Part shown: positions 5,069-46,057 of the stretch, one piece after another
Position numbering within the stretch: position 1 is the first letter of the stretch
Layout: every line of letters begins with the position of its first letter
Origin: Eledone cirrhosa
Taxonomy: Eukaryota
Assembly (NCBI GenBank): GCA_964016885.1
Contig: OZ024741.1
Coordinates: 54,126,001 to 54,190,000 of the forward strand
Reading direction: 5' to 3'
DNA: 64,000 nucleotides
The notes under the pieces: model-generated
Told to the model about the DNA's origin: nothing
Databases searched by the model: none
Seen by the model: the letters and a program-made list of their open reading frames with translations, nothing else
Position numbers and translations under genes: made by a program

Positions 5069-5430
5069 GGAGAGAGAAGTGCTGCTCCCCAGTACATTTT
5101 TTGAAAGGTGGGTGAATGTGGCGAGAATGGCCCGTGTGAGTGGGCCTACTCTGGTCATGTGGCTGTAGGTAAGTAAATTTGAGGAGGAGAGGGGTGCCCT
5201 TCCAGGGTGCTCTTGAAGCGTCGGGTCGTTCAGGATTGGTGGGGTACCTCAGCGAACCCTGGGTGGTCATCCCCACTATTGGGGAATTTTTCTTGTATTT
5301 TTCTTGTAACTTTATTATTGTTATTCATATTGTTTACTCGATTTTTCTGTAAAACCCCACTGTCCCAGTCCTTTGTATTGTTCCCTATATGTCAGCCCTG
5401 GTGGCCAATAAAAGAAATCATTATTATTAT
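5069..5430 (+). mobile_element. 5'-truncated 3' end of a Tx1-like LINE (family of copy B)
   Basis: Aligns by eye to ~16997-17360 (ORF2 end, 3'UTR, AATAAA, ATT tail). Confidence 0.93.
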
Positions 5431-5781: not shown

Positions 5782-7759
5782 ATGGCTAATTCCCCTCTGC
5801 ACGAAGCAGCTGAAAGCCTTCCTCCAAAAATAACACCTCACACCGACACCACCATTGTAAATGTTACTACGTTTGCCAACACAAAAAAAAATATAAGCAG
5901 TAGCAATATTTTAAATTTGTCTCAGGCAGACATTCATTTCCCGCCATTACCAATGACTGCAGGTGTTAAAGCCTCCACCACCACCACCACCGCGACAACC
6001 ACCACCCCCACCACCACCGCGACAACAGAAACAAAAGAAGAAAAAAATAAATTAACTCGTGATGTCGAAATGAAATCAAGCAAAATGGACTCTTCCGCAC
6101 CAAAGACGACTGACATCACCACCACCACAACTGAAACTAAAATTAAGATTAACACAAATAACGATAGCAACAACAACAACAATGACATTATAAAACCGAC
6201 CCTCAGTTTCGCCATCGTAGCAAAACAATTCGAAGCGTTCACGGTAACTCAAGAGGATTTAGAAAATGCCAAACTAATGGTAAAGAAACATGGGTACAGG
6301 GTTAGCCTCAACCCCCCACCTAATAAAATGGAGCATCGGCGCCTATGCACCGTGTCGTATAGAACAATAAATGTAAAATCGCGCCGAGTGGAACGGGCAT
6401 CCGAGTCCCAAATCCAAAAAGCTTTGGGACATGTGTGGGCAAGAAAAACCCACATCAGACGTGGGCAAAAGTATGGAACCGTGGATGTGTTCTTTGAAAC
6501 ACCAGAGGAGGCTAGAGAACACTCCATGGCCCCATTAAAAAGTGACAAGCTATTGTGGCCAGAGACTCGTAAAGATCAGGGTGACCCACGTTCCACCGGC
6601 CATCGAAATTCCCTGGCTAATAGCGGCTGTCCTCGCCGGCATCGAAGCCAACACGAAAATAATAGCAATAGCAAAAGAAAAGCAGGAAAACTGGTCCGGA
6701 TCTGGGATGGAGCACCTAATCCAAGCGGACCAAAAAAGCATTGAGGAGATCCCAGAGGTAATAGACCTCACTGACGGCAGCCACCTCACCGTAATTGTCG
6801 AGGGCAGAAGACCTAGGTGTGTCGTTTGTGGTGAAGGAACCCACCTAAGGGCTTTCTGCCCTCAGGCTAAAAGGTTGAGGCCACCTCTCCTACCCACCCC
6901 AGTGACACAACCATCAACACCACCAGTAGCAGAGATAGCAGCAACAACTGTAGCAGCAACAACAGAAGCAACTATAACAGCAACAACCCCAGCAACAGTA
7001 GCAAAACCAACACCACCACCACCACCAGCAAAACCAACACCGCCACCACCCAACGCTTCAGAACTAGCACCAGCGCCTACATCATCCACCACGCCACAAC
7101 CAAAACTAACGGCTGTGGAGTATTTTCCACTCCCCGGCCTATCACAACTGGAAACAGATTGTGACGACGAGGAGTGGGAAACGATATCCGGAAAAAAAAA
7201 AAGAAACCAAAAAAGAAAAAATTCTCTTCCTTCCCCCTCCAAAAACAAAATACAGAGGGAAACAAATAAATTAAGAAACAAAAAAGTTAGGACAGATATG
7301 CCACCATCCACACCAGCATCACCAACCCCATCAACCCAAACACCAACACCATCACCATCATTAACCCCAACACCACCATCACCTACACCACAAAAGTCAC
7401 CAAAATGCGAAACAGAAACAAACCCACAACAAACGCAAACAAAACAAAACAACCAAAACGATACACACTACACAGCATTAAATTTGAACAACAAGCAATT
7501 ATTACACTACATCCAACACAACACCAGCATCACAGAAAAAGATTACACAACAACCCCAAAATTCACACCACCTCCACACATACAAATCACTCGCATCTCA
7601 CAGAAAACGTACATAACACTAAAACAAAAATTCCCCAAAGACATCGGAGACTTCCGACAAGCACTCTCCAGGAGGATTTATAAGGACATCCTTCCTGAGG
7701 AGGCCACAAGCAGTGAAAAGGATGGAAAAACCGTCCTTCCCCTACAAGAAGTAAGGTAA
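5782..7759 (+). pseudogene. LINE ORF1 (RRM-like region, CX2CX4HX4C knuckle, Pro/Thr-rich tail), frameshift near 6550
   Basis: ORFs 5782..6744 and 6542..7759; CVVCGEGTHLRAFC; similar to ORF1 of copy B. Confidence 0.88.
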
Positions 7760-7793
7760 GTGGTCTTTCCCATCTTTTCCACTCCTTTTCAAC

Positions 7794-10700
7794 ATGACCT
7801 CACTCAGAATAGGCAGCATAAATGCGCGTGGCTTGGGGTCGTCATGGAAGCAGGGCCACCTGCTCAACGACCTCAGGTCACTAAACATAGATGTAGTGGC
7901 CATCAGCGAGACCAGAATCTCCGAAGCACAGGCTTTCGCACCGATCTTCGGCGGCTACGATGTGTACGCATCTCCCAGCCGTCAGGGATCGGGGGAGGAG
8001 TTGCTGTGCTTTTTCGGAGAGGTTTGGATCTTGCCATACGGGCCATCTTCCTGGACCCAGAAGGTAAGTTGGTGGTGCTGGACGTGTCCAGCGGAGACGG
8101 GCAAGCTTTCAGGTTAGTGGCCGTCTATGCCCCGACAGGAGCAGGGCGGCCTGATTTCTTCCGGCGTCTGGAGACTTTTCTTGGAACGTCCCGCTCTTTA
8201 GTGTTAGTGGGCGACTGGAACGGGATCTTAGATGCACGCTGGGATTGTGTGGGATTAGTGGATAGGGAAGGAGGGTGCAAGAGTCTCACCAACCTGCTCA
8301 GACGTTTTGAACTGTCTGACAGGTACCGAATGGATTTCCCGAATGTACCAATGTGGACTTGGACAAATCGCATAGGGTCATCCAGATCATATCTAGATAG
8401 AGTATTTTGTAGGGAAATAGATAGGTCTAGCATAGGCTGTCCACAATTCAAGATAGTCAGCTACGCGGACCACAAATTCGTGATCTGTGTGCTTGACTTA
8501 GATAGGCTTCATAGACAAGGACCCGGCTACTGGAAGCTAAACGCGTCCTTACCAGCGCGCAAGGCCTACAGAGACCGGATTAGCGAACTAGTTAAGCGGG
8601 CGTTGACGGGGGCCATCGTCAACAACAAGTGGTGGTTTGTTCTGAAATGAGCAATTAGAATAGAGTCCATTAGGTTTAGTAAGACTTTAGCAATAGAGAA
8701 AAATAGAGCAGAGGGAGAATTAGTTAGAAAATTAGATGAGGCGCTTAGCAAAGGCATCGCGACCGACGTACTTGCGGCGAAATTGGCCCTTGACCAATTC
8801 TTCAATGCAAAGCACGAAGGCTGCGTTGTGAGAGCTAGGGTGCGTGCTCTCAGACACGAGGGGACGAAAGCCGTTCAATGGGCCCGAGTGGCGGAGGCGC
8901 GTCGTGGCAACAAAGCCACGATCCGGTCTTTGGTGGACCACGACGGGCGCATGCTACTCGATCCCGGGCAAATGTGTGAAGCTTTTCAGCGACACTTCGC
9001 TCAACTGTTCGGGGGCAGTGGCGGGCCGGATCGAGGGATGGACTTTAGTGTCTACCTCGACGGACTGCCGCGGCTTTCGGCCACTGAGGCGGAGTGTTGC
9101 GAAAAGCCGATAACAACCGCTGAAGTACGGGATGCAATGACTAGTTGCACAAGGGGTAAATCGCCTGGTTTGGATGGTCTGCCCTATGAACTTTACGTAC
9201 AAATGCCAAACTTGTTCGGAGGCCTCTTGGCGGACGTCTACTGCAACTGGCAACAGAACGGGAGAATTCCCAGCTCTGTGAGCCGAGGAGCGGTGGCGCT
9301 GCTGAGAAAGGATCCGAACAAGGGGGATAACATAGATAATTTTAGGCCCATAACTCTGCTAAACACAGAGTTCAAAATTTTGGCCAAGGTGCTAGCAAAG
9401 AGGTTGGCGCTTGTCGTTGGTGGTCTGGTGGGAGAGGCACAGACATGCGCCATTCCCGACAGATCCATCCACGACAACCTCCACCTCATGCGATACATCG
9501 TAGAGAGGGTAGCTAAGGAACCTGGCACGGGTGGGTCTTTGATCAATTTAGATCAGTCGAAAGCCTTCGATAGGGTCGACCATCGTTACCTAGCGGCAGT
9601 CCTGAGGGCGGCTGGCTTTGGGCCCGTCTTCAGAGGCTGGATCGCTGCCATGCACAGCGACATCTGCTCTGTAGTGAGAGTGAACGGTCACCTTTCGGAA
9701 CCGTTCAACATCATGCGCTCGGTCCGCCAAGGATGTCCCCTCTCGTCCCTATTGTACGTATTGACTCTCGAGCCATTACTGCACAAACTGGAGACGTTGA
9801 GGGGGGTCCCGCGCGAACTAGGATGCGGAAGATCCGTGTCAGCATATGCCGACGATGTCACCGTAGTGGTGTCGAACGCCAAACACATCGAGGCGATCGG
9901 CACTACACTAAGAGAATACGAAGCGGTGACAGGAGCAATGATCAACCAGAAAAAGTCAGTGGGCCTGCAGCTCGGCACCTGGAGAGGCAGGTCCATGCCG
10001 TCCAACAGCGTCGTCGGGCGCTGGACGGACGGACCGGTTAAATTGTTAGGGGTCTGGTTAGGTCCAGACCTCCAGACGGACAAAAACTGGGACGAGGTGA
10101 CGAGCAGGGTGGCTTCTCTCACCCAGAAATGGGCCGAGAGGAAGCTATCCCTGAAAGGTCGAGCGGAGGTGGCGAATGCGTACATCGCATCCGTCATCTA
10201 CTACCGCCTGACCGTCGTACCTTGTCCTAAGCCCCGCCTGACTGCGGTGGAGCGTTTGCTCTTTCGCTTCTTGTGGAAGGGACGCGCTCCGATGGTCAGG
10301 CGGTCCATCTGCTGTCAACACCCGCTACGTGGAGGGCTGGGCATGCCGTGGCTGATGATGTTCAGACACGCGCTCAGGCTACGACATCTCCACCTCTTCC
10401 TCGACGGTGATCAGGTGTGGTCGCCGTTTGCAAGACACGTTTTTCCCCAGCTCGTCTCCTTGACGGAGCTGCAGTCCTGGGTCAAGCGAAGACCGAGAGG
10501 GAGCGCTTGGAGACTGGAATGTCTTCAGGCGCTCACAGCCCTCGACCAATCGGGCAATGTGATCGGTGGAAACTCCACCTTGGCGTTCTATAGGGGATTA
10601 GTGGAGGGGAAGAGCGACGACGTACTTGGAGAAACTCTAGGCGTCGACGAAAATCAACTAGCCAATCTCTTCGGAAGGACTTTCGGGCCGGGGCCTATGG

Positions 10701-11461: not shown

Positions 11462-11475
11462 ATTATTATTATTAC

Positions 11476-11521
<46 letters not shown>
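11462..11521. repeat. (ATT)n spacer between LINE copies A and B
   Basis: Visible directly. Confidence 0.98.
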
Positions 11522-11732
11522 GACGAAAGTGGATGTACGTTTTTTTGAAGCTCCGTGAGTAAGCAATTTTTTGAGGATTAATTGTGGAGAATTGTTTATT
11601 TTTTGTACCGCTGAAGCATTATAAGACATTCATTTGTATCCTGTGAAGGAATAACTCATAATATTTGGGCCTTTTGGCCCAAATATTTGAACTTTATTTT
11701 GGAAAAATAATAATTTTTTTTCTCAAAAAAAC

Positions 11733-13646
11733 ATGGCGGAGCCACGCCCCCTAGAGGCGGGTTTGCTGTCGTGCAACGGCGACTTGAGCGTTGAGAGGAG
11801 AGGTGGGGCGAGGAGCGCCACCAGCACGAGTGTGAGCAGCGACAGTGCCAGCACCAACGGGCCGAGCGGCGCGGAAGGTGGTAACAGCGACAACACCAAC
11901 ACCAACAAGCCGAACAGCGCAGAAGGTGGTAATAGCGAGAGCACCAACAAAACGAACAGCACAGAGAGTAATATTAGCGACAGCAGCAGCACCAACAAGG
12001 CCAACAGCACAGTGGGTAACCGCGACACAGGGGAGAACAACAACAGCAATAGCAGCAGCAACACCAACAAGAACAACAACAGTGACAACACCAACAAGAA
12101 CACCTTCGCTGCTGTGGCAGCGGCTAAAAGGAGACCATGCTACAGCATCGACTTAACCAACAGAGAGGAAAAGTTGGCCCAGGCCTGGAAAATCATAAAT
12201 CAAGAGCAGACCTGGGCAAACTTAACTGTCCCGGCAGAAGCCATTGAGGCAGTGGAAAAAAGAACGGTGCATTTCAGATGCATCTCAGTAGAGACAAAGA
12301 GGGCAGCGATAATCGCCCAAGCTGATATAGAAGCCGCACTGAAATACATCAGAGAGGACACAGACTTCATAGAGAGGGGCAGGCAATACGGCACAGTTTC
12401 GGTGCTGTTCAAGTCTGAAGCCCTCGCTGTGAAGCATTCAATGACCCCTTTCAAAACCAGCAAGGTCATAATGTACCCCTCCCACATGGGAAAACGAATA
12501 GCACGTGTGCGCATTCCCAGGATTCCACCAGGACTTGATATGTGGTGGCTCCTGGGTTGCGTAATCGTGGAAGGAACGGATACAGTCCCGGTAGAGGCAA
12601 CGAGAACTGCCAGGGACGACTGGTCCGGGGTTGATCTGGAGATACTGCTCCAAATCAGACCCGAAAACGTAAAAGCAATCCCGGACCACATCCGCCTCCA
12701 AAACGGGAGGGTGTTGCATATAATGACTGAGGGCAAAAGGCCGCATTGTTTCCTTTGTGGGGAAACGACACACTTGCGAGCCTTCTGCCCTCAACTGCCG
12801 AAAAGCGCAAGGGGTCGAAAGATTCCACTGCTGGCGACGCCGGGACAAGGACCACCAGCAACACCGTCAACAATGGAACCACCAAAATTGCACACCCAGG
12901 GGGGAAACGAGGAAAGCTCTCCCATTCCCCCTCCCCCCCAAAATACACACACGAACAAGAACATAAACACTCACTCAGACACAAACACGCTCACAGCCAC
13001 AGACCCCTCATCCTCCAGCAGTGAAGATGAGGGAAAACCAAAGTCCCCCAAAATACAAAAAACAAAACACAAAAAAAAAAAAAGAAATCCACAAAGCACA
13101 AACACCCCCACAAAAAAAAATACACACACCACCCACACAAACATTTTCCCCACAGCATCACCAACACAACCACCAAAATCCCCCAAACGCAAACAAGCTA
13201 AACAGACACAAGAACAAATAGACACACAAACATCAGAAACTACAGACACCCCACCCACAACAAACGCAGACACAATAGAAACAACACTAACAAAGCTATC
13301 ACCACCACAATCACACGAACAAATAAAACCCGAGCAACAAAACATTAAAAACTTCGTGCTTGCCAGAAGGGCCAACAAGGAATTGATGGCCCATGTAGCA
13401 CGAAGCACAAACATCGAAAAAGACGGGGAAACATTTGAAGCGAGCACATTTCGCGTACCAGATAATTTGCTTCTGATGCGAATGTCGCTCGCTTCATACA
13501 AAGAAATTCGAAAGAGCTTTCCTCGGGATGTGGGAACCCCGAACGTAAAACCCACGTCAAGACTATTAAAGGGGTTCCCAAAAGAAACCCCACAAACCAT
13601 GGAGGTCGAACCACCCGACCTTCACAAGACCCCGGAAGGTAAGTAA
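11733..13646 (+). CDS. LINE ORF1p nucleic-acid-binding protein (CCHC zinc knuckle)
   Basis: Uninterrupted 637 aa; CFLCGETTHLRAFC; low-complexity N and C regions. Confidence 0.9.
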   Translation: MAEPRPLEAGLLSCNGDLSVERRGGARSATSTSVSSDSASTNGPSGAEGGNSDNTNTNKPNSAEGGNSESTNKTNSTESNISDSSSTNKANSTVGNRDTGENNNSNSSSNTNKNNNSDNTNKNTFAAVAAAKRRPCYSIDLTNREEKLAQAWKIINQEQTWANLTVPAEAIEAVEKRTVHFRCISVETKRAAIIAQADIEAALKYIREDTDFIERGRQYGTVSVLFKSEALAVKHSMTPFKTSKVIMYPSHMGKRIARVRIPRIPPGLDMWWLLGCVIVEGTDTVPVEATRTARDDWSGVDLEILLQIRPENVKAIPDHIRLQNGRVLHIMTEGKRPHCFLCGETTHLRAFCPQLPKSARGRKIPLLATPGQGPPATPSTMEPPKLHTQGGNEESSPIPPPPQNTHTNKNINTHSDTNTLTATDPSSSSSEDEGKPKSPKIQKTKHKKKKRNPQSTNTPTKKNTHTTHTNIFPTASPTQPPKSPKRKQAKQTQEQIDTQTSETTDTPPTTNADTIETTLTKLSPPQSHEQIKPEQQNIKNFVLARRANKELMAHVARSTNIEKDGETFEASTFRVPDNLLLMRMSLASYKEIRKSFPRDVGTPNVKPTSRLLKGFPKETPQTMEVEPPDLHKTPEGK

Positions 13647-13675
13647 ACCTTTCCTCCACCATTCATCCTGCCAGC

Positions 13676-16600
13676 ATGGCCATAAGAGTAGGAAGTTTAA
13701 ATGTTCGTGGCCTGGGGTCGCCCTGGAAGCAAGGTCACTTGCTCAACGACCTCAGGTCACTAGGAATGGATGTAATTGCCATCAGCGAGACCAGAATTTC
13801 CGACACACGCGCACTGGCGCCGATTTTCGACGATTATCAGATCTTTGCATCTGTTAGTCGGCCGGGAATGGGAGGTGGAGTGGCTGTGCTGTTTAGGAAA
13901 TGTCTGGATCTCGAGGTAAGGTCAATCTTCCGGGATCCTGACGGAAAGTTGGTGGTCCTGGACGTGAGCAATAGCGAAGGTGGTGCCTTTAGACTGGTGG
14001 CCGTCTACGCCCCTACTGGGGCCGGTCGGCCGGACTTCTTTAGGCGCCTGGAAAACTTTCTGCTTACGTCTCGCCCTTTACTGTTAATAGGGGATTGGAA
14101 TGGCATCTTAGAAGCACGCTGGGATTGTGTGGGAGTATCTGATAGGAGCGGGGGGTGCAAAAGCCTCAAGTACCTGATCAGCCAGTTTCAACTGTCTGAC
14201 AGGTACCGACTAGATTTCCCTAATGCGCCAGTATGGACCTGGACCAATCGCATAGGGTCATCTAGATCGTACATAGATAGGATTTTCATTAGGAAAAGAG
14301 ATAGAAATAGTGTAGGATGTCCACATTTTAAAACGGTTGCCTATTCAGATCACAAGCTTGTGATCTGTATGGTCGACCTAGATAAGACACGTAGGTTAGG
14401 ACCCAGCTACTGGAAGCTAAACATGTCGTTTCCGGCACGTAAAGCTTACAGGGACCGGGTCAACAACTTAGTTAAGCAAAAGTTGACAGGGGGGGTTGTC
14501 AACAACAGGTGGTGGGGGGCACTCAAAAGAGAGATTAGAGCAACCTCGATAGGATTTAGCAAAGAAGTAGCAATAGAGAAAAATAGAAAGGAGGAGGGGC
14601 TGATAGCTAAGTTAGACGAGGCTATTTGTAGTGGCATTGCAACAGACGTGCTAGCGGCGAGAATGGCACTAGACCATTTCTTCAATGCGAAACACGAAGG
14701 TTGCATTGTCAGAGCTAAGGCGCGTGCTCTGAGGAACGAGGGAACCAAAGCTGCCCGATGGGCTCGCTTTGCAGAGACGCAGCGTGGAAATAAAACCACA
14801 ATTCGGTCTTTGACGGATCGAGATGGACACGAACTGAGCGATTCCAAGCAGATGTGTGAGGCCTTTCGCCAGCACTTTGCTCGATTGTTCGGGAGGATGG
14901 GTGAGTCGGAGACGGCGGCGGACTTCAGTCCCTACCTCGACGGCTTGCCACGCCTCTCGACGGCCGACGCTGAGCGCTGCGAAGAGCCGATAACATCAGC
15001 CGAAATTCAGGACGCCCTTGTCGGCTGCTCGAGTCGCAAGTCACCCGGTTTGGATGGTCTGCCCTACGAGCTTTACGTAAATATGCCAGACTTGTTCTCC
15101 GATCTCCTCGAAGCGCTCTACTGCAACTGGCAGCAGAACGGGAGCATTCCCAGTTCTGTGAGCCGTGGCGTAGTGACGCTGATAAGGAAAGACGAGAACA
15201 AGAGGGACACACTAGATAATTTCAGGCCCATAACCCTGCTCAACACAGAGTTTAAGATTTTGGCCAAGGTGTTAGCGAAAAGGTTGGCGCTTGTCGTCAA
15301 AGATTTGGTTGGGGAGGCGCAAACTTGCGCAATCCCGACCAGGTCCATACACGACAACCTCCACCTCATGCGATACATCATAGAGAGGGTTGGGTGCAAA
15401 CCTGGCTTCGGTGGGGCTCTGATCAATTTAGATCAATCGAAAGCATTCGATAGGGTCGACCATCGGTACTTGGAGGCTGTCCTCGAGGCGGCTGGCTTCG
15501 GCCCCGTCTTCAGAAGCTGGATCGCTGCAATGTACAGCGGCATCCGCTCGGTGGTCAAAGTTAATGGCCACCTCTCGGAACCGTTTCAGATCTCTCGATC
15601 GGTCCGTCAAGGGTGCCCTCTCTCCTCACTTCTGTACGTATTGACTCTTGAGCCTCTACTGCGGAAGCTGGAGTTGTTGCAGGGCATCCCGCTCGAACCG
15701 GGACGTAGAAAGGCTGCGTCCGCTTATGCGGACGACATCACCGTGATGGTGTCGGACACCTCGGAAATCGAGGTGATCCGCACCCATTTGGAGGAATATG
15801 AAAGGTTGACGGGAGCAAAACTTAACCCGGAAAAGTCGGTGGGCTTGCAGCTCGGCACCTGGAGAGGCAAGTCCATGCCGTCCAACAGCGTCGTTGGGCG
15901 CTGGACAGACGGACCGGTAAAGTTGCTCGGGGTTTGGTTCGGACCAGACCTCCAGGTGGATAAGAATTGGGACGAGGTGACGAGCAGGATAGCCAACCTC
16001 ACCCAGAAATGGGCTGAGAGAAAGCTATCACTGAAAGGGCGGGCGGAGGTGGCGAACGCGTACATCGCGTCCGTCATCTACTACCGCCTGACCGTCGTGC
16101 CTTGCCCCCGTCCACGCCTCGCCAATTTGGAACGGCTCCTTTTCAAATTTTTGTGGAGGGGACGGGTCCCGTTGGTGAGGCGGTCCATCTGCTGCCAGCA
16201 CCCTCTTCGTGGAGGGCTGGGCATGCCGTGGCTAATGATGCGCAGACATGCGCTGAGGCTGCGACATCTCCAGATATTTTGCCTAAACGGTGAACAGGTG
16301 TGGTCGCCGTTTGTTAGACGGGCCTTTCCGCAGCTCATCTCTTTGACTGAGCTGCAGTCCTGGGTCAAGAAGAGACCGAGACTGGGCGACTGGCATCTGG
16401 AATGTTGCCAGGCGCTCACTGCACTCTGCAAGGTGGGCAATGCGGTCAGTGGAACTTCCACTCAAGATTTCTATAGAGGATTAGTGGAGGGCAAGTGCGA
16501 TGACGTACTAGGAGAGGCTCTGGGCGTCAACGAAGTAGAACTGACCAGTATGTTCCGGAGGACTTTCGAGCCGGGGACGATGGATAACTTCCAGAAATCC

Positions 16601-17095
16601 CTCGCTTGGCAGTGCTACCGGGGGGCGCTGCCGGTTCGGGATAAACTCTACAGGCACGGAAGTGCTGTCAGACGAACCTGCCCGAGATGCGCGCAGAGCG
16701 ACGAAACCGTTCTGCACGCACTCGTCCAGTGTCCGTGCATTGCTGACTTGTGGGGTTATGTCGAACAGCTATTGTCGCGTGTAGAACGGATCCGGCTATC
16801 GTCCGAGTCCATAGTGAAGATTGACCCGCCGCCTTCTTTTGGTCAGGAAGGGCAGGCAATTTTCCTCTGCCTGGTGGCAGTAGCGAAAGAGGTTGCATGG
16901 TGGACCAGGTTGAAAGGACTGAAGACAGACACTTTTCTCTTCGGCCAATCCCTCATCAACTTCTTCAAGTTTCACTTGGAAAGGAAGGTGAGGGTGGAGA
17001 GAGAAGTGCTGCCCCCCAGTACATTTACTGAAAGGTGGGTGAATGTGGCGAGAATGGCCCGCGTGAGTGGGCCTACTCTGATCATGCGCCTGTAG
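13676..17095 (+). CDS. LINE ORF2p: APE endonuclease, reverse transcriptase and Zn finger (Tx1-like)
   Basis: Uninterrupted 1139 aa; SLNVRGL, GDWN, SDHK, YWKLN, SPGLDGLPYE, QGCPLS, YADD, CPRC..ETVLHALVQC. Confidence 0.96.
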   Translation: MAIRVGSLNVRGLGSPWKQGHLLNDLRSLGMDVIAISETRISDTRALAPIFDDYQIFASVSRPGMGGGVAVLFRKCLDLEVRSIFRDPDGKLVVLDVSNSEGGAFRLVAVYAPTGAGRPDFFRRLENFLLTSRPLLLIGDWNGILEARWDCVGVSDRSGGCKSLKYLISQFQLSDRYRLDFPNAPVWTWTNRIGSSRSYIDRIFIRKRDRNSVGCPHFKTVAYSDHKLVICMVDLDKTRRLGPSYWKLNMSFPARKAYRDRVNNLVKQKLTGGVVNNRWWGALKREIRATSIGFSKEVAIEKNRKEEGLIAKLDEAICSGIATDVLAARMALDHFFNAKHEGCIVRAKARALRNEGTKAARWARFAETQRGNKTTIRSLTDRDGHELSDSKQMCEAFRQHFARLFGRMGESETAADFSPYLDGLPRLSTADAERCEEPITSAEIQDALVGCSSRKSPGLDGLPYELYVNMPDLFSDLLEALYCNWQQNGSIPSSVSRGVVTLIRKDENKRDTLDNFRPITLLNTEFKILAKVLAKRLALVVKDLVGEAQTCAIPTRSIHDNLHLMRYIIERVGCKPGFGGALINLDQSKAFDRVDHRYLEAVLEAAGFGPVFRSWIAAMYSGIRSVVKVNGHLSEPFQISRSVRQGCPLSSLLYVLTLEPLLRKLELLQGIPLEPGRRKAASAYADDITVMVSDTSEIEVIRTHLEEYERLTGAKLNPEKSVGLQLGTWRGKSMPSNSVVGRWTDGPVKLLGVWFGPDLQVDKNWDEVTSRIANLTQKWAERKLSLKGRAEVANAYIASVIYYRLTVVPCPRPRLANLERLLFKFLWRGRVPLVRRSICCQHPLRGGLGMPWLMMRRHALRLRHLQIFCLNGEQVWSPFVRRAFPQLISLTELQSWVKKRPRLGDWHLECCQALTALCKVGNAVSGTSTQDFYRGLVEGKCDDVLGEALGVNEVELTSMFRRTFEPGTMDNFQKSLAWQCYRGALPVRDKLYRHGSAVRRTCPRCAQSDETVLHALVQCPCIADLWGYVEQLLSRVERIRLSSESIVKIDPPPSFGQEGQAIFLCLVAVAKEVAWWTRLKGLKTDTFLFGQSLINFFKFHLERKVRVEREVLPPSTFTERWVNVARMARVSGPTLIMRL

Positions 17096-17348
17096 GCTGG
17101 TGAATTCGAGAAGGAGAGGGGTGCCCTTCCCGGGTGCCCTAGGAGCGTCGGGTAGCTCAGGACTGGTGGGGTGCTTGAGTCAACCCTGGGTGGTGATCCC
17201 TCTTATTGGGGAACTTTCATTGTTGTATTTTTATTGTTATTTTGTTTTTTTGTTATTTATACTTACTCGATCTCTATGTAAACCCCCACTGTCCCTGTCT
17301 ATTGTGTTGTCCCCTATATGTCGGCCCTTGTGGCCAATAAATGAAATC

Positions 17349-21585: not shown

Positions 21586-21648
<63 letters not shown>

Positions 21649-24338: not shown

Positions 24339-24462
24339 ATATCCATATAAACTCACTCAAACACACACACACACACCCAACCCGCCTGCACATACAATAA
24401 CACTCTTAGTAAGATACACACATCCACCCCATCTATTCAGCCACCACACCTCTTTCTGCAAT

Positions 24463-24654: not shown

Positions 24655-25568
24655 CACTTCATCTCATCCAAAACTTTGATCACAAGCTCTGGATATGTAT
24701 TTGTCTACTCATTTGACACACACACACACACACATACACACACGCACGCACGCACACGCACACACTCATGCATAAAGGCACTCACATAAACACTAATAAT
24801 TGCATGAACTCACTCAAACACACTCACACACTAATAACATCCATACCATCAGCCTCCAACACACACGCACACAGAGAGAGACATAAACATAGGCAAATAC
24901 ATATACATACATATGCACACAACTGTGCATATACATACACCAAAATCACAAACACTCATGTATATACACACATATATACGCACACACAAACTTCCATCAG
25001 TGATACACAGAACACGCTCTCACACACAAAGGAGAAATAAATTCACCGACATACACAGATGAAACGCACTCTAATCTGCACCCCGAACTACTTGCTTGCC
25101 ATCCTCATCCATCCTAAAACCTCCAGTAATTTTCTCAAAATAGATTTTCTTTTCTTGATATAGGGGCTCGAAGAACCAACATCACGCGTTCGGCCAGTTC
25201 CCCTGTATCAAGAAAAGTATATATTTTTCGAGAAAATTACTGAATGTTTTTCAAATTCCAAGATTTTTTTAGGAACATTCAATGTTTTCAAGTTTTTACT
25301 GGTTTTGCCGTTTGAAGAGCTCAGGCTATCATAACTGATAGTCCTCAATGAAATATATAAAATGGAGTTTTAAATAAACCTGAATCAACTGATTATGGCC
25401 TCCGATCTTTTAATATATAATGCTCCGGCTTCCAACATTTATACAAGTCGTTGAGCGCTTCTTTTTATCTGCTTCACATCCGTCAGATCATAATGTTGTC
25501 CTCACAACCCTGTTTGGTTAACCCATATAATCTAACTATCTATCTATCTATCTCACTCCCTCTTTCTC

Positions 25569-31480: not shown

Positions 31481-31545
31481 AGAGAGTAGAGTATTGAAGT
31501 TTGCTTAAAGCATTGTTGAATAATAAAAACAATTTTTTTGTCATT

Positions 31546-32002
31546 TTTGGAGGCCTCAACAATGCAGTAGGGTAAATCTCCGGGTAACAGAATCCAGTGG
31601 TGAAGAGAGAGATGTAAGGGAATGTAGAACGAGATGTAAAGTGTGTAGAGGAACGTAGGAAAGAGCGTAAAAAATAAAAATAATAACACGAGATAGAGTT
31701 ACCTTGGGAGAGATTTAATTGTCTCTATATTTCGGATTCGCATCCATCAACTGGGGGATTTTCCGGGGGGGGGGGGGATCTGTCGGAAAACCCCCCATTT
31801 GATGGATGCGAATCCGAAATATAGGGACAACTAAATCTCGCCCAAGGTAACTCAATCGCGTGTTATCATTTTTATTGTTTACGCTCTTTCCTACGTTCCT
31901 CTACACACTTTAATCTCATTCTACATTCCCTGACATCTCTCTCTTCACCACCGGATTCTGTTACCCGGAGATTTACCCATCTGCATTGTTGAGGCTTCCA
32001 AA
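31546..32002. repeat. Long imperfect palindrome (~220-bp arms) between (AT)n tracts
   Basis: Arms are reverse complementary around a G-run at ~31765-31783. Confidence 0.9.
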
Positions 32003-33444
32003 ACGATATATATATGTATGTAAATTTTGAGTATATGTTGATATATGTATATATGTATATATAGAGAGAGAGATAAATATACACGGGTGTATATGAGTGT
32101 GTATAGAAGATTATATTAATAAAAGTAATTCCAACTTTGTCTGATTTACTCGTTTTATTTACAATCCTTTAAAATTTATAATGGTATTAGAATGAAATAG
32201 TATGGTAGAATATTAAATGTTAAGTGTTAATTGAACAAGTACTGTCATGCTTTCGCAATCTTCAGGTTCATATTGTGTGGTGACAGTCAAGTTTGAAATT
32301 TTCAACTGTCATATATACATATATACCATAAAGGACTCATGGGATCGTCAGGTATGATATGTCTTTAATAGTTAGGTACAATCAGGTCTCATGCAATGAC
32401 AGTAACTCATTAGATGGAGAATTGGTTGATATGTGAGAGTCGTCGCAGCTCCTGATTAAGTTGCATAGTTATTCTGACTTTTTGTACATGAATTCCACCG
32501 ACGTCGACGTTAAGACTGCCTTTCAGCCTTTCGTGCTGAAGAAATTAAATACCAGTACAGGGCGTCGAACTGGTAAGTTTATTAATATTTGCGTTATTTG
32601 TTCTGAATTTGTTCTGAATTCTGAGTTCAATATACGGCTTCTACTATTGAATAAAATGGTAAAACGATATAACTGGGTGTGTGTGTCTATTACTACTACC
32701 TTGCACCCAATGGTTTGCAATATTTGATCCGGATCTGCATTCTGAGTTCAAATCTCGATTACTGCTAAAGAATAAAATAACAAAATGATAGAACAGTGCG
32801 TGTGTTTGTGTGTGTATATTTGTGTGTATGCATATCACTAAAACAGGCCCCTATGTGTTGTAACATCTGAGGCAAAATAAACCTATAAAATTGTGAACCG
32901 TAACAACAAGAATTTATGGAGAAAAAAAAAAGAAAAAACCTGGGGACCCTTCCTAACATTCGTTGTTATAGTGACACCGATGTCATTACTTCTAATGAAA
33001 TTCTTACCAAATACTTAAAGTTTCTGGAGGAGGGATTTAGTAATCAACGCAAAACATTCTACATTATCGTAATGGAGAAAAAAAATGATGGCTTTATATT
33101 TTAATGTTGCTAAACCACTTGATTACGGCTGTTGTCATGTGATGGCTTTATGGCTTGAATCATTAGTAACTTGCTGCGATTCAGTCTATATTTGCTCTCT
33201 ACACTCAGACAACATTTTTTTTCTGCTTATGCCAGGTTTCTCAACCTACATTTATGGTCTGCTAGCAAGTTTTATTTGTAGTTATTCAAGGATATTATTA
33301 TACAAGTCTTCAGCTTCTTTGATAAGCATTCAATTCTGACGTCAATATTTAACTAAGTTATCAGAATTTGCGTTTTCTTGATAATAATATAACAGGGCTA
33401 TACATACATACATACATACATACATACATACATACATACATACA

Positions 33445-34258: not shown

Positions 34259-35345
34259 TAGAATCAACTAAAAAAAATCAAGAAAATTAACTGGTCAATA
34301 GCTAGACTCTGGAGATTAATACAAATATAAATTAGCGAGAATCATATTTCGGCTATTGGAAATTAGCGAAAAACAACTTCCGAGATGTGTGGCAAGCGCT
34401 CAATAAATTCTAATGAACCAGAGCTACAACATACGTTAAAAGGCCAAACCCTCTGAGACGATGGTTAAACCATTATCCGCACAGCCATAGAAACGACCAA
34501 GTAATTCGGGTCAAACAAATTAAAAAAATGTAATTGAAAAGTTTACCCGGACCTCTGGATGGTTGGTAAAAATCCAGCATTTGGGTTTCTGCGACTCCTA
34601 AATCAAGTACTGTCCGCTTAGACAAATAATGTTAGGCTTCTGGTAATATTATTGAACAAGGATGTCACTTTCTCAACAGGCTTTTAGTTCAAGTGCCAGG
34701 CCAAGGATTGACCGTTACCAATACCCACGTGGGGCTCGACAAGGGAGGCAACCCTTATTTTTGGCGGATGAATTCAGTATGTGTATATTATTGCAAAATT
34801 GCAAAATATCACAAAACGAATTAAGTTCTCAACAGAATGGTTTTAAAGTTAACAAAAGCTATTCATCAGTCAATAGAATCAACTAAAAAATCAAGAAAAT
34901 TAACTGGTCAATAGCTAGACTCTGGAGATTAATACAAATATAAATTAGCGAGAATCGTATTTCGGCTTTGGAAATTAGCGAAAAGCAACTTCCGAGATGT
35001 GTGGCAAGCGCTCAATAATTCTAACTAACCAGAGCTACAACATACCTTAAAAGGCCAAACACACTGAGACGATGGTTAAACCATTATCCGCAAAGCCATA
35101 GAAACGACCAAGTAATTCGGGTCAAACAAATAATAAAATGTGATTGAAAAATTTACCCGGACCCCTGGATGGTTGGTAAAAATCCAGCAGTTGGGTTTCT
35201 GCGACTCCTAAATCAAGTACTGTCCGCTTAGACAAATAATGTTAGGCTTCTGGTAAGATGATTGAACAAGGAAGTCACTTTCTCAACAGGCTTTTAGTTC
35301 AAGTGCCAGGCCAAGGATTGGCCGTTACCAATACCCACGTGGGGC
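34259..35345. repeat. Partial tandem duplication, period ~614 bp
   Basis: tagaatcaactaaaaaa...cccacgtggggc occurs twice. Confidence 0.9.
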
Positions 35346-38211
35346 AGAGCACGTATTTTCGTTTCCCAGAGCACGTATTTTGCTTCTGACAACGCAGCCT
35401 TCATTCTTTGCGTCGAACAACTGGTCCAAGGCCGTTCTCGTCGCTAGCAGGCTGGCTACGTTGCCACTCCTAAGTGCCTTTTCTACTTTATCTACCAGTT
35501 CCTTTTCGGTTTTAGTTCTATCTAACACTAATTCTTTACTAAAAGCTATCGAGTCTAATCTAACTGCCCTCTTGAGAGAGTACCACCATCTGTTGTTGAC
35601 AATGGCCCCCGTCAAGTGCTGCTTAACTAAAGTGCTAATATGTCTATTGTAGGCTTTGCATGTCGGTAACGACAAGTTCAGCTTCCATTAGCCGGGTCCC
35701 AGTCTATGGGTTTTATCAAGGTTGACTACGCAGGTCACTAATTTGTGATCTGAATAGGCAACCATGAACATTTGTGAACAGCTTAACATGTTCCTATCCT
35801 TCTTTCTAACTAGAACCCTATCTAGGTACGATCTAGATGTTCTCCTACGATTAGTCCACGTCCACAGTGGCACAGTCGGAAAATATAGTCGATATCTATC
35901 GGCCAGGTCAAATCGGCCGATTAACTGTTTGAGGTTGTTACACCCCTCTCTATCGGGACATGCTCCCACATAGTCCCAACGTGCATCTAGGATTCCATTC
36001 CAGTCCCCCACTAACAGCAGGGAGCGGGACGTTCCCAGAAAAGTCTCTAGACGTTTGAAGAAGTCTGGCCGCGGTGTCCCGGATGGGGCATATGCGGCCA
36101 CCAGCCTGAAGGCTCCACCTTCACTACCGTCAACGTCTAGGACCACCAGTCGACCCTCCGAGTCCAGATGTACGAGGTCCAGGTGTTTCCGCAGCAAAAC
36201 GGCAACCCCACCCTCACCTCCCGGCTGACAGAGAGATCTGCGTAGATCTCAAAGTCGTCGAAGATGGGGGCCAGTTGTCGCTCACTGTGGATCCTGGACT
36301 CGCAAATGGCTACTACATCCATACTGTGCGACCTGAGGTCGTTTAAGAGTTTGTCCTATTTACAGGGCATCCCCAGGCCGCGTACATTCACACATCCAAC
36401 TCTTACATTGGCCATGTTGGTGCTGAAAAGTTAAAAAAAGAGGAAAAGAAATCACTCACCTCTTCGTCTCCTGGGGACCAGGCTGCATAATTTCCATGGA
36501 GGTGTTGGAGGGGTTGTTTGGTGTGGTGGTGGTCTCTGGAGGGGTGGGGACAGAGATGTTTTATGGGGAGGGGGTGTCTGATGGGATGGGGGTGGGTGTG
36601 GGGAAACATTTTAACAGGACTCGATTGTAGGGTTTGACGCAGGGGTTACCTACGTCGTTAGGAAATTTTTCTTTTAACTCTTTATGTGTGTCCATGGAGG
36701 TCCTAATCATTTTAAGATTAGGATTCTCCGAAGAGTGTGTAAAAGTTTTCCCTTCGGACTCCACCGAAGGGTTTTTATATATGGTGTCTGTTAAAGTTTT
36801 ATTGTTAGTATTTATGTAGGTGTAACTTTTTTGTTGTGTTGGGTTGCTTTTTGTCTGTGGTTCTTGTGTGTGTTTACGTTTTGTAGTAAGTGTTTTGTTT
36901 TCAGTAGGGGGTGTTTTTGTTTTTGTTTTGCTGTTTGCGTCGCTTGTGTTGGTGTTTGTGTGTTTGTTGCATTTTTGTTTGTGTTATGTCTTTTCTTTTT
37001 CTTTTTACTGGTCGGAAAGGCTCTCCCTCATTGTCACTAGGTGACGATGATGAGGTCTCATCCGTGTTGTTGGGGAGGGGTACATTTTGGGGAGTTGTTA
37101 TGTGTGTGGGTGTTTCTGGAGTTGTTTTAGGTGGAAAGGGGTTGGGTGGGACTGTGTTTGTCGTTTGTTTTGTTGTCACTATTTTTTTATGTTGTTGTTG
37201 TTGTTGTGGTGGTGGTGGTGGTGATTGTTGTGTTGGTGTTGCAGGTGTTGGCAGTAGTGCCTTTTTTAGGCTAGCAAGCTCTCAGGTGAACCCTGTTTAA
37301 GCAGTGGTAACATGAGGGCCGCCTACCATCGATCGAAATGTTTATGTATATAAGCCCATCCAGCAACACACGTTCCGGGATCCTAGCTATTCGTTCTGGT
37401 GTCATTTGGACCAGAACTTCCAGGCTAGTTCCGCTGAACAGGTCGCCGGAGGACTTACCTACCGATATTATATAGTGGCAGTATCGGTAGAGAGTTGGAC
37501 ACCATGCTTTGAAGCATAGAGTTACGTCCCTTTATGATCTGAGTTCAAATCCCGCCGAGGTTAACTTTACCTTTCATCCTTACGGGGTCGATAAAATAAA
37601 GTACCAGTAATGTACTGGTTGATTGCTGGCCTTGTGCCTAAAATAGAAACAATTATATAGTCTGTTTCGAGGTTTAAAAATCCACATAGTACCCACCAAA
37701 TATCAATATTTGGTGTGATACTTTGGATTTTTATTTTCTGTGTTCTTTTCCCCATGTATGTGGGGAAAAAGGCGAACAGCGGTGACACAATTGGCGACAC
37801 AGAATATTTCTGTTCCCTCAATTGGTCTTTCATTAGAATGGATAAACTCCCGTAGAGTCTACCCTTCTGAATAAAAGCAATGTCTTTTAAGGCATTTTTT
37901 AAAGCCAACTCAATTTCACCTTGTGAAAGTTGAGTCGGTTTTCGTGTTTTGTTTGAGATTGTCCTGAAAATCAAAGTTTTCAAGGCAGCTTCTCTTCGCA
38001 AATCTGGGGGAGAGTTTATGGAGAATAATCCGTTCACCCCAAAAGTTACATATTGTCTGGCGTTATTCATAAGCTTATTTGCATTTGAAATATCTACCGG
38101 TGTGTAGCTTACCGTTTTCTTTACGGTTTGCGCAAATGATATTTTGTCGTTTACTTCCTTGTTGCAGTTATTGGTCTTGTTGTTGTTATTATTGTTCTTG
38201 TTTATTATTAT
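35346..38211 (-). mobile_element. Decayed Tx1-like LINE copy C (ORF1 remnants and APE part of ORF2, ATG at 36415)
   Basis: MANVRVGCVNVRGLG, FRLVAAYAP, GDWNGILDARWD, SDHKLV; ORF1 KEKFPNDVGNP. Confidence 0.9.
37477..37651 (+). mobile_element. SINE family 1 inserted in ORF1 of copy C, 10-bp TSD attatatagt
   Basis: TSD at 37467-37476 and 37652-37661. Confidence 0.92.
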
Positions 38212-40537
38212 GGTCGCACATGTGAGAAGACAGTACAAATCTGCGGTGGAAAAGATTCGTAACTTTAAGCTGTTTTAAAGTGTAATTTTTTGTATTTTCT
38301 TGTCGTTAACGAAACGTAAGGTACACATCTTGATTTAAAGAGAGGGATACCTCTCAATATTCGGGCTATAAGCCCGAATATTCAGATTTATTTTTAAAGA
38401 CTTCGAAAAAAATCGCTTTCCCACCAAAAAAGATTATGGAAATGTTCGACCTTGAAACGGTAAACAACGTTCAGGTCAAAAGTTTAAAGGCAGCCACTGT
38501 AGATTTCACCACGCTACGACGGCTACAGTCATGCCTGTCATCCACTCTACTGAATGTGAAGGCAAAACTCAACCTCCTGTGATAGCAGCAGTATCATCTG
38601 AAAACGACATCACCACCACCGCCACCACCACCACAACAACAGCAACTCAGAGCAATAACGACAATAATACCGACAGCAAGAATGACAACACCAACAATAA
38701 GAGCATCAGAAGCACCACATTTGCTGCAGCAGCAGCAAAAACAAAGCGCTTATTGAATATTGATATTGATATTAGCGATAAAGACGAACAGTTGGCCAAA
38801 GCGTGGAGGCTAATTAAACGGGAGAAGTCCTGGGCAAACCTGACCATCCCGGACGAGGCAATAGCGGCCATGCAGAGGAGGACGGTGTTCTTTCGATGCA
38901 TTTCGGTGCAGACACGAAAAGTGGAACTTGCCAGCCAAGCAGAGGACGAGGCTGCTTTGGAGTACATCGGAAGTAACATAGAGTACAAAGCAAGAGGCAA
39001 ACAGTTCGGTACCATCTCGGTACTGGTCAAAACCGAGGCCCTCGCTATTAAGCACTCGGTGACCCCCTGAAGAACGGAACGCATTATCATGCATCCGTCC
39101 TACATGGGTAAAAGGACAGTAAAGGTACGCATTCCCAGCATCCCACCAGGAATGAACATATGGTGGCTGCTGGGATGCGTAATCGAGGAGGGGACAGACA
39201 CTATCCTCCTGGATATCAAAAGGACAGAGAGAGAGGACTGGTCCGGAATGGATTTGGAGATTATTCTCCAAATGAAACCGGAGGACATGAACAACATCCC
39301 GGATTTTTCTCGCCTGCAGGACGGGACAACAATCCAACTAATCATTGACGGAAGAAGGCCACGCTGCTTCGTCTGCGGGGAAGCAACGCATCTGCAAGCC
39401 TTCTGCCCTCAGCGCAAAAATGCAGGGGGTCGCAAACCTCCTTTGTTGCCAACGCCAGTGTCAGCACGGAGAGCTCCACCACCACCACCAACAAAATCAC
39501 GGACACCGACATAAAAAAACAGCCGGATCACCACCAACACCAAAACCAATCCAAGGGGAAAACGAGGAAAGCTCTCCCACTCCCCTACCCCCCAATTATA
39601 CACATAGATAAAACAATAAACGCACACACAGACACAGAGACACTCACAGCCACAGACCCTTTGTCTTCCAGCAGCGAAGATGAAGGAAAACCCAAAAGTG
39701 TAAAAAAACAGATAAAACTCACAATAAAAAGCCCCAACAAAACACAAAAACATACACAACAAAAAATACAGACACCACTAACGCAAACACTTCCCCAATA
39801 ACATCATCACCAACAGCAACATCGACACCACCTTCACCATCCCCGAAAGGCAAACAACCTAAACAAACACAAGTACAAATAAACACACAAATACCTGAAA
39901 TTGCAGACGCCACACCTACAACAAACACAGACATACCCGAAACAACACCACCAAAACCATCACCACCACAGTCACCAAAACGAAAACAAATAAAACCACA
40001 CCAACAAAATGTTAAAAACTTCGTGCTTGTCAGAAGGGCCAACGATAAACTGATGGCCCTCTTAGCACGAAGCGAGGACATTCAAACAGAGGGGGAGATT
40101 TTTGAAATGAGCATATTTTGCGTGCCAGAAGATTTGCTTCTGGTCCTAATGTCACTCAATTCCTTCAAAGAAATTCGAGAGAGCTTTCCTCAAGTCGTGG
40201 GAACCCCGAATATGAAACCCACATCAAGACTTTTAAAGGGGTTCCCAAAAGAAACCCCACCAACCATGGAGGTCGAACCACCCGACCTTCACAAGACCCG
40301 GGAGGTAAGTAAACCTTCCCTCTCTCTCTAAGCTTACCAATATGGCCATATTAAGAGTAGGAAGTTTAAATGTTCGCGGCCTGGGGTCACCCTAGAAGCA
40401 GGGTCGCCTGCTCAACGTCCTGAGGTCGAATTTCCGACACGCGCGCACTAGCCCCCAATTTCAACGACTATCAGATCTTCGTATCTGTTAGCAGGCCGGG
40501 AATGGGGGGTGGGGTGGCAGTGCTGTTTAGGATCTGG
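38212..40537 (+). mobile_element. Decayed Tx1-like LINE copy D (5'UTR, ORF1, start of ORF2), 3'-truncated
   Basis: ORF pieces 38531..39070, 39089..39514 and 40023..40331 resemble copy B ORF1; CFVCGEATHLQAFC. Confidence 0.9.
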
Positions 40538-42511: not shown

Positions 42512-43046
42512 AACTACTCCCACCTGTCTACCGAGATCACTGATGTTATATTCTTATAGAATTCTAGTAAATAATCAGGAGCTGATTATGCAGAGCGGTT
42601 GATGGTCAGGCAGAAATTAAAATTTAGAATTGGAGCTCTGAAATAGCAATATATATATGGATGTATATATAATGTATTTTGCAATACACTTTATGCTTAA
42701 TTAAAAGCATTTTGAAGACCGTAAGCTATTGTTTTTTTAGAGTAGTGACAAATTCACTTACTTTGATCTCAGCAAACAGGGGAGATAAGCCGACAAGGCC
42801 TTGTTTCGCTTTTGTTGAAGCTTATCAAAGCTAACTACTCCCACCTGTCTACCGAGATCACTGATGTTATATTCTTATAGAATTCTAGTAAATAATCAGG
42901 AGCTGATTATGCAGAGCGGTTGTTGGTGAGGCAGAAATTAAAAATTAGAATTGGAGCTCTGAAATAGCATAATCAGCTCCTGATTATTTACTAGAATTCT
43001 ATAAGAATATAACATCAGTGATCTCGGTAGACAGGTGGGAGTAGTT

Positions 43047-43091
43047 AGCCTTGATAAGCTTCAACAAAAGCGAAACAAGGCCTTGTCGGCT
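43047..43091 (+). ncRNA. Hammerhead ribozyme, U3-A8 variant (inverted copy)
   Basis: Same motif on plus strand; stem I extendable by gggag/ctccc. Confidence 0.78.
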
Positions 43092-43206
43092 TATCTCCCC
43101 TGTTTGCTGAGATCAAAGTAAGTGAATTTGTCACTACTCTAAAAAACAATAGCTTACGGTCTTCAAAATGGTTTTAATTAAGCATAAAGTGTATTGCAAA
43201 ATACAT

Positions 43207-43360
<154 letters not shown>

Positions 43361-43500: not shown

Positions 43501-44127
43501 GGCGCATGGCTTAGTGGTTAGAGCATTGGGCTCATTATAAAATAATAATTATTATTTCATTATTTATTATGAAGTCGAAGCAATAACGATATCAGATACA
43601 ATGAAAATACGTATAGCAACTTTTACATAATAAATAGAACTTACTGAAGTATAATCTTATTGCTTTCTACTTCATTATATTTTTATATATTGTTTTTTTT
43701 TAATGTTTGCATATTTATTTAGACTCTCCACTCCCATAACTTTATTTCCAAAAGATTATTAAATCTGAGAAAAAAAGACAAAAGCACAAAATCAAGCAAT
43801 GAGAAAATAGGATAGGTGTAAGGAAGGGCTGATCTGACTGTATGGGAAAGTAAAGGAAAGTATTATGAAAGCCATAAATGAGAGGAAAACGATGGGAAAT
43901 TCAAGGACTCTGAGGCCACAGAAGACAGGGAGACGAAGGTGATGGGCTCGGGGCATACGAGCTGGTGGTGTTGGGGCTGCAACCCGCAGACAGAACTTCA
44001 AAATTATTTCCGCGGTCAATGGCCAGCGACACCCGCTGCAGCACCAACCCCACCTCGCGTGGCTCCTTCCTCAGGCAAGCTTCATTATCATACCAATACT
44101 CAAAACAGAAATCATTATTGCACCAAA

Positions 44128-44720
44128 GGGCGGTGGATTGGCAGTATTGGTAGAGGGTCGGACGCCATGCTTTGACGCATAGAGTTACAGCCCTTGCCAT
44201 TCTGAGTTCAAATCCCGCCGAGGTTAACTTTGCCTTTCATCCTTACGGGGTCGATAAAATAAAGTACCAGTAATACGCTAGGTAATTGCTGGCCTTGTGC
44301 CAAAAGTAGAAACAATTATTACACCAATGTGGTGAATTGGTAGTATCGGTAAAGGGTTGGACGCCATGCTTTGTAGCATAGTTACGTCCCTTTACGATCT
44401 GAGTTCAAATCCCGTCGCGGTTAACTTTGCCTTTCATCCTTACTGAGTCGATAAAATAAAGTACCAGTAATGCACTGGATAATTGCTGACCTTGTGCCAA
44501 AAGCAGAAACAATTATTACAGCAATACAGGCAGTGATTGGCAGCATCGGTGGAGTGTCAGGTACCATGCTTTGCAGCATAGTGTTCCGGGCCTTTACGTT
44601 GAGTTCACATCCCGCTGAAATCAACTTTGCCTTTCATCCTTACAGTGTCGATAAAATAAAACACCAGTAATGCGTTAGGGTATTTGCTGGCCTGGTGCCA
44701 ATAGTAGAAACAATTATTAT
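44128..44720 (+). mobile_element. Three head-to-tail SINE family 1 copies
   Basis: Units at ~44128, ~44328 and ~44528, each ending agaaacaattatt. Confidence 0.92.
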
Positions 44721-44898
44721 GCCAATATCCAAATATACACAGACCTACCCGATGCTATATGATAGGAAGAAGGATATATCGACGATTAATCCTTAATCCT
44801 GGTTACACCAGTGAATATTGATCAATGTTGGCGACTGAAAATCTAATCACTGGCTGATTAACACGACATAATCACAATATATATATATATATATATAT

Positions 44899-45440: not shown

Positions 45441-45544
45441 GACCAAAAGTTAAACAAGGTTCATTGATTAATCAATGAATATAGTTTTACGATAGATTAG
45501 AAGCACTCAACGAAAATGTTTTCTGGAGTTATTAATATTAATTC

Positions 45545-45850
45545 AAAATTTTAATAAATATAGACATTCATGTGATCAAATATATTTTGTTATATATATT
45601 TCAGAGGTACTGTGCTGTTCCCTCAGTACGTCCTCATCAGATGAAATAAAATTGATATCTGACATACCTCAACCGTGCTGATGGTTAAATTCTGCCAAGA
45701 CTGGAATTTAACCATCAGCACAGTTGAGGTATGTCAGACATCAATTTTATTTTATCTGATGAGGACGTACTGAGGGAACAGCACAGTACCTCTGAAATAT
45801 ATATAACAAAATATATTTGATCACATGAATGTCTATATTTATTAATATTC
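45545..45850. repeat. Long palindrome (~145-bp arms); each arm has a hammerhead-like CTGATGA-stem-GAAA
   Basis: CTGATGA ggacgtactg..cagtacctct GAAA tatata at ~45756-45803 and its mirror. Confidence 0.88.
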
Positions 45851-46057
45851 TGAATTAATATATGGGATTGAGAGAGAGCCAGCAGGCGCGTATACGATGT
45901 ATGGGGGGGGGGGGAGAATAGTAGGAAGCAGGAAAGTTATTTTATAAAATCCTAGAATTTCGACTATAATTAAACGAGCGAGGAGGTTATTTTATAAAAA
46001 TAAAAATAGAATAAAATAGAATAAAAATCGAGAGAAGGTTATAAAATAAAATCCACC

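Follow-up and report, generated by a model that had tools for sequence, protein, structure and literature searches.

A splice-donor-like signal at the ends of open reading frames in L1/Tx1-group LINEs of Eledone cirrhosa DNA and in related elements

Analysis of a 64-kb stretch of Eledone cirrhosa DNA (the window, by which we mean the whole of the stretch analyzed) indicates that a splice-donor-like signal at the end of ORF1 in its LINE copies is real and is conserved at the nucleotide level. The preliminary description had proposed that the spacer between ORF1 and ORF2 in one of these copies, copy C, is a 37-nt intron whose removal fuses the two ORFs, and had taken this as support for splicing at the junction. 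The conserved donor-like signal at the ORF1/ORF2 junction is upheld by our results, whereas a conserved intron that fuses the ORFs is not, and the fusion interpretation is weakly supported at best. We tentatively favor a reading in which the donor is joined to a distant acceptor near the 3' end of the element, which would give an ORF1-only RNA and not an ORF1-ORF2 fusion. The mechanisms considered below are not all mutually exclusive.

LINE copies of the window and the spacer of copy C

The window contains four ORF1/ORF2 junctions (A at 7756, B at 13639, C at 36459 on the minus strand and D at 40305) and a 3' fragment at 5058-5430 (Table 1). Only copy B is intact. Its ORF2 of 1150 aa has human L1 ORF2p as the best solved match (E 1.8e-57), and the core of its ORF1 resembles CCHC and ZCCHC3-type proteins with look-alike scores of 0.90-0.93; a Pfam search of this ORF1 returned 0 families. 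Because copy B combines an ORF2 bearing AP-endonuclease, reverse transcriptase and zf-RVT domains with a separate upstream ORF1, the element is classed by its sequence as an L1/Tx1-group LINE. With other members of this group (human LINE-1; Kibi, Koshi) it shares the two ORFs, the three ORF2 domains and a short inter-ORF spacer with stops. The copies here are microsatellite-flanked, and Tx1 families are described as often preferring microsatellite targets (PMC4494074). For Octopus vulgaris, L1-Tx1 families have been listed among the recently active ones (PMC13282606).

Table 1. Positions of the features discussed, numbered from the first letter of the window
Feature	Position	Strand	Basis or remark
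Donor AG/GTAAGT directly at the ORF2 stop of the 3' LINE fragment (5058-5430)	5166..5176	+	
Copy A junction, AG/GTAAGT holding the ORF1 stop, pyrimidine tract	7756..7807	+	
(ATT)n array between head-to-tail copies A and B	11462..11521	+	
Copy B ORF1, intact, 651 aa from stop to stop, with a CCHC knuckle and look-alikes of RNA-binding domains	11691..13646	+	
Copy B junction, donor of phase 1 followed by a pyrimidine tract and, at 36 nt, a CAG, out of frame	13639..13674	+	
Copy B intact ORF2, AP-endonuclease, reverse transcriptase and zf-RVT	13643..17095	+	ATG 13676
Weaker donor-like CTG/GTGAAT just past the copy B ORF2 stop	17096..17105	+	
Copy C ORF2 remnant, endonuclease part	35343..36415	-	ATG 36415-36413
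Copy C inter-ORF cassette GT...AG, 37 nt, proposed mini-intron	36423..36459	-	sequence reading
Copy C TTAAC, putative branch A at -9	36430..36434	-	
Copy C 5' splice-site-like motif AG/GTGAGT, ORF1 stop inside	36454..36462	-	
Copy C ORF1 remnant, 5' limit approximate	36456..38250	-	stops and frameshifts
SINE-like interspersed repeat within copy C ORF1	37476..37656	.	self-BLAST
Copy D junction, B-related, AG/GTAAGT, pyrimidine tract, AAG at 28 nt	40305..40341	+	

ORF2 identity among the window copies is 59-75%, and copy D when aligned with B shows a 1-nt gap directly before the donor (one base fewer in D). The 3' fragment, A and B form one head-to-tail cluster with ATT runs between them (further runs at 5526-5573 and at the 3' end of copy B), which may be either tail or target. 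Copies C (minus) and D (plus) stand head to head at 38250-38450, which leaves little room for two 5' leaders. The surrounding host DNA is AT-rich and microsatellite-rich, and its repeats may be of an octopod type. It also carries ORF remnants that resemble Penelope-type reverse transcriptases and GIY-YIG endonucleases (54156-56020, 61220-62008), a reverse transcriptase fragment of another clade (46025-46672), and a short interspersed repeat in many copies (5432-5533, 24459-24657, 37476-37656, 44102-44727, 50165-50338) that is partly tandem; one of these copies interrupts the ATT run that separates A from the 3' fragment. Other features of the window are a tandem array of 79 bp and a number of long inverted repeats, mostly around AT runs (17661-18111, 21417-21590, 31545-32003, 42649-43229, 45535-45861).

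Read on the minus strand, copy C has AG/GTGAGT at 36459, a pyrimidine tract and then a CAG ending at 36423, just as the 37-nt GT...AG spacer had been described. The ORF1 stop TGA (36458-36456) lies within the donor, a second TGA (36454-36452) is in the ORF2 frame, and 7 nt separate the CAG from the ORF2 ATG. Donor and acceptor are both of phase 2, so that excision would take out the TGA stop and join ORF1 to ORF2 in frame, again as claimed. The ORF1 of this copy is broken by stops, frameshifts and an inserted repeat, and we infer its frame at the junction because the last conserved ORF1 block (36842-36588) and the final peptide lie in one common frame with one stop between them. The ORF2 of copy C has also decayed: it is stopped at codon 20, shifts frame near 36230, contains another stop and breaks off near 35343. 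Copy C had been presented as an independent, divergent family; divergent it is, with 59-63% ORF2 identity to B, but it shares ancestry with the other copies and is not of independent origin.

The branch-like TTAAC of the earlier account is present, but its geometry is not that of a textbook intron, for the putative branch A is 28 nt away from the donor but at -9 relative to the acceptor, and the pyrimidines are mostly upstream of it. The TAA within the motif is a stop in the ORF2 frame. Branch points usually lie about -18 to -40 from the acceptor, upstream of the tract. Compared with U2-type introns, the 37-nt spacer has GT-AG ends, a strong donor and a pyrimidine tract, but the branch A of its TTAAC falls outside the interval of 18-40 nt before the acceptor. 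A general figure for intron length is 50-90 bp (PMC13644364).

Conservation of the donor at ORF ends

The motif AG/GTRAGT occurs at 10 sites in both strands of the window (128 kb in all), of which four are the four ORF1 ends (4/4) and one is an ORF2 stop. The donor is of phase 2 in copies A and C and of phase 1 in B, and in a set of relatives described below (G001) it stands behind the stop; copy A and the G001 locus L095 share an identical 14-base stretch in which their ORF1s use different stops and frames. From these differing phases, and from the identity of A and L095 across different frames, the constraint acts on nucleotides. The donors at ORF ends span families with 36-72% identity in the endonuclease region. 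The full cassette of donor, pyrimidine tract and YAG was found in the window only at the B and C junctions, against a mean of 0.063 in shuffled sequences, 2/300 of which reached two, with a cassette pattern that had been fixed after inspection of the data.

The relatives (loci L073-L117, without L113 and L114) come from a metagenome-assembled genome, G001, which turned up when prokaryote assemblies were scanned. Although this public genome is bacterial, many of its contigs consist of LINE tandem arrays from an animal, which makes them host contamination. The arrays consist of 6.4-6.9 kb units arranged head to tail, with about 41% ORF2 identity to the window element; one unit (L100, 1288-6596), with a gap of 5,320, falls short of the others by about 1.1 kb. 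AG/GTRAGT is present at 51/52 distinct ORF1 ends, 13 nt before the ORF2 ATG, and GTRAGT is found shortly past the stop at 49/49 distinct ORF2 ends (29 GTAAGT, 20 GTGAGT). Neither the 51 nor the 49 sites are independent events, for they belong to nearly identical tandem copies of a few subfamilies, all from a single assembly. In 51/51 the donor comes after the stop, and an AG between donor and ATG occurs in 2. These junctions have no pyrimidine tract, and their positions +7/+8 vary freely. One family, seen in 3 copies, is missing the ORF1 donor and has kept the ORF2 donor.

At the ORF2 end of the main G001 family the donor is followed by a pyrimidine tract and then by the first YAG at 34-40 nt (13/13 distinct sequences), and one subfamily again uses the TAA within the donor as its ORF2 stop. 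The B and C spacers are built in the same way, but at this place there is nothing to fuse. Since the same architecture recurs behind ORF2, where fusion has no target, the donor-pyrimidine-AG cassette is best described, at the level of sequence, as a recurring ORF-end signal.

Among distant L1/Tx1 loci (about 23-32% identity) the donor was found at 1/26 ORF1 ends, a set made up of 30 junctions minus L009, L015, L027, L045 and L046 (no clear ORF1 end) plus L113, and including the near duplicates L036 and L037. The strong donor at the ORF1 end and behind ORF2 sets the elements studied here apart from the L1/Tx1-group elements compared with them. At the distant locus L024 the ORF1 stop comes with a donor of phase 1 (1920-1940), as in copy B.

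A reading that does without splicing was weighed against these data. The stop pair in two frames, a strong termination context, and the spacer and start context for reinitiation could by themselves account for the junction, given that the ORF1 frame and the ORF2 frame are each closed by stops in all window spacers and that human L1, with a 63-nt spacer and two stops, is proposed to use reinitiation (PMC5860796, PMC5972666). Such a role does not readily explain the AG/G kept before the stop and the GT kept after it in the four window copies and at 51 G001 junctions, where +7/+8 are free, or the conservation of the same motif behind the ORF2 stop; moreover, distant relatives have ordinary stops without the motif (25/26). 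We regard a purely translational function as improbable.

The reading frame of an ORF1-ORF2 join

If the 34-40-nt cassette were spliced as a mini-intron, an ORF1-ORF2 polyprotein would arise in family C and perhaps in A. The cassette is beyond chance in the window, and the distance from donor to YAG is alike in B (36), C (37) and the 3' cassette of G001 (34-40). The first AG past the donor lies at 52 nt in A, 36 nt in B, 37 nt in C and 28 nt in D, where it is a weak AAG; in copy A there is no AG ahead of the ORF2 ATG (7794), so that the first one falls inside ORF2, in frame. Removal up to the first AG is in frame in 3/4 window copies (A, C and D), for which the chance value is 0.11, and the positions differ. 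Against this, it is out of frame in B, the only intact copy, and a join in family B would meet a stop three codons on. In the G001 relatives fusion is impossible at 51/51 junctions because the stop is upstream of the donor and only 13 nt separate the GT from the ATG. A fusing intron as a general feature of these elements is not supported, as the first-AG positions vary and neither copy B nor G001 fits it. An in-frame rule that uses later AGs (at 53 nt in B) was rejected as post hoc, AGs being present in several phases in each copy; a later-AG join would also remove the first endonuclease residues.

A search for public runs gave five entries from two studies, with none listed as RNA, an outcome without bearing on expression. 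Contigs of four public runs, whose kind is unrecorded, were aligned to copy B (11522-17345), chosen because the runs contain it and joins to distant acceptors would be visible on it; the sample is thus one of family B. The junction of copy B is the dominant form of its family, with differences listed only at 13657 and 13658 (2109/2115 depth in X1 and 2260/2271 in X2), and two further contigs (X4 record 20 and X5 record 29) span it free of gaps; the pieces from X5, which hardly differ from B and have a depth of about 2, were not counted as a second species. None of the 12 gaps listed for these contigs, of 19, lies at the B junction, and none of the 15 joints listed, of about 2,100, starts at the B donor (13638). 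As far as these sequences go, family B is shown to lack an in-frame short intron, and in the G001 relatives none is possible.

No fused ORF1-ORF2 protein was found among 33 close ORF2 matches (longest 1158 aa) or among the cluster members listed (longest 1161 aa), no endonuclease or reverse transcriptase in the 10 longest ORF1 matches scanned of 150 listed, and, in a weak test, no longer fused ORF1 form among 1,166 candidates; these searches rest on unspliced gene calls, in which only intron-less DNA copies are detectable. ORF1 C-termini were compatible with an encoded donor in 1/5 usable cases among the 150 matches, a sample that is uninformative. Relatives among viral contigs were likewise sought, and none was found.

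There is a precedent outside the LINEs. The splicing of Ogre elements takes out stops and joins coding regions, with a much longer intron. Ogre, of the Ty3/gypsy type, resembles the proposal for copy C in being spliced between ORFs (PMC3735527), but it is an LTR element, and the join frame in the LINEs studied here is not conserved across families, as the B family and 51/51 G001 junctions show. Taken with the branch A at -9 in copy C, the frame of copy B and the failure to find a fused protein among the matches scanned, these results make the mini-intron improbable, and in-frame fusion is the version with the least support. A compromise, in which a movable 34-40-nt cassette serves as a splicing switch kept in the DNA, so that some families would produce an ORF1-only RNA and C, through the 37-nt intron, a Gag-Pol-like fusion, is to our mind distinctly unlikely.

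The depth of the public contigs varied along the element, in a measure that cannot rank its parts. In X4 it was 20-61 over 5' ORF1, 191-197 over 3' ORF1 (12465-13624), 21 across the junction and 348 over 17032-17336; it was thus about 9-17x higher over 3' ORF1 and the last 300 nt than at the junction, which fits an ORF1-only RNA insofar as contig depth can be read at all. In X1 and X2, unlike X4, it was about 2,100-2,300 on either side of the junction. The start of an X4 contig at 17032 was considered as a join to the AG at 17034 and rejected, for the acceptor is weak, 26 AGs had been examined and the left break at 13624 does not match; none of the 15 joints listed falls at AG 17034. A stretch of Arg-Trp-Val codons near the ORF2 end (17032-17042; also in L073, L074 and L106) has bases nearly unchanged in 6/6 copies viewed. 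It resembles a donor context and might be a weak acceptor or a deletion microhomology.

Possible functions of the donor

The closest parallel is found in Ty1/copia elements (Arabidopsis EVD shGAG, barley BARE1, Drosophila copia), in which a 5' splice site is conserved close to where the structural gene ends. This U1 site at the gag end is described as making a Gag-only RNA and blocking premature termination (PMC5580714, PMC3735527), and according to the same sources it stays in the DNA since the unspliced RNA is replicated, while splicing provides surplus structural protein. The LINEs of the window and of G001 likewise have a conserved donor where their structural ORF ends. The Ty1/copia elements differ in that they are one-ORF LTR elements in which splicing creates the stop, as shown by experiment; the window LINE has two ORFs and an ORF1 stop already in place, and the use of its donor is putative.

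By analogy, U1 would bind the donor at the ORF1 end, and part of the RNA would lose ORF2 by splicing to a distant 3' acceptor, giving surplus ORF1 protein. The unspliced RNA would be the template for ORF2 translation by termination-reinitiation, as proposed for L1, and would also serve retrotransposition. The donor signal would survive in DNA copies because it is the unspliced RNA that is retrotransposed. The position of the G001 donor behind a retained stop fits such an ORF1-only RNA, and the natural acceptor in that family would be the cassette behind ORF2. No strong conserved acceptor was seen in the 3' parts of the window copies, and the 3' UTR of copy B has none at 75% pyrimidine, its best-scoring acceptor being the junction AG itself. 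The ORF1-only reading also leaves the donor behind ORF2 unexplained. An ORF1-only RNA could leave a DNA product of the kind known as HAL1, an ORF1-only derivative of L1 (PMC5753468). No copy without ORF2 was found among the B contigs or in G001, where none appeared in 36 gaps of 5.3-6.9 kb, or about double, between loci that had been fetched by their ORF2 match.

U1 might instead act at the donor without productive splicing, controlling premature or terminal polyadenylation and, in tandem arrays, read-through. Donors stand behind both ORFs, the acceptor position is not conserved, the elements are arranged head to tail, and in EVD the donor-bound U1 is described as repressing premature termination (PMC5580714). 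What this reading does not predict is the conserved YAG of the G001 3' cassette; in addition, AATAAA/ATTAAA motifs near the junction are mostly upstream of the donor, with one in ORF2 of copy B (14789) and none before the ORF2 stop of A. We consider it rather unlikely.

The scoring of splice sites raises another alternative. In both C (0.90) and B (0.80) no acceptor scores higher than the junction AG, and the ATG is kept downstream of it. The pyrimidine tract and AG might accept a donor in the 5' leader, giving an ORF2-only mRNA in any frame; the overlapping donor and acceptor would then exclude each other. Donor-like motifs do occur upstream of ORF1, at 5602 and 11555 in the respective 5' leaders of A and B as well as in L074 (1829) and L095 (1777), and in copy C a GTGAT at +5 to +9 would, from our reading of the sequence, set the branch A at -30. 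However, A has no AG before its ATG and D just an AAG, the G001 junctions have no pyrimidine tract, and no leader joint is among the 15 joints listed. On balance an acceptor for ORF2-only mRNA seems unlikely.

A high output of ORF1 and a low output of ORF2 from one RNA is explained in L1 and SART1 by termination-reinitiation (PMC5972666), and splicing of human L1 has been described as damaging the full-length RNA (PMC5860796). In the literature searched, Repbase and subscription papers aside, neither a fusion intron in a LINE nor donors conserved where LINE ORFs end were found to have been reported. If the tentative ORF1-only reading is true, programmed splicing, so far shown for LTR elements, would extend to the biology of LINEs, and conserved donors at ORF ends could explain the origin of ORF1-only derivatives.
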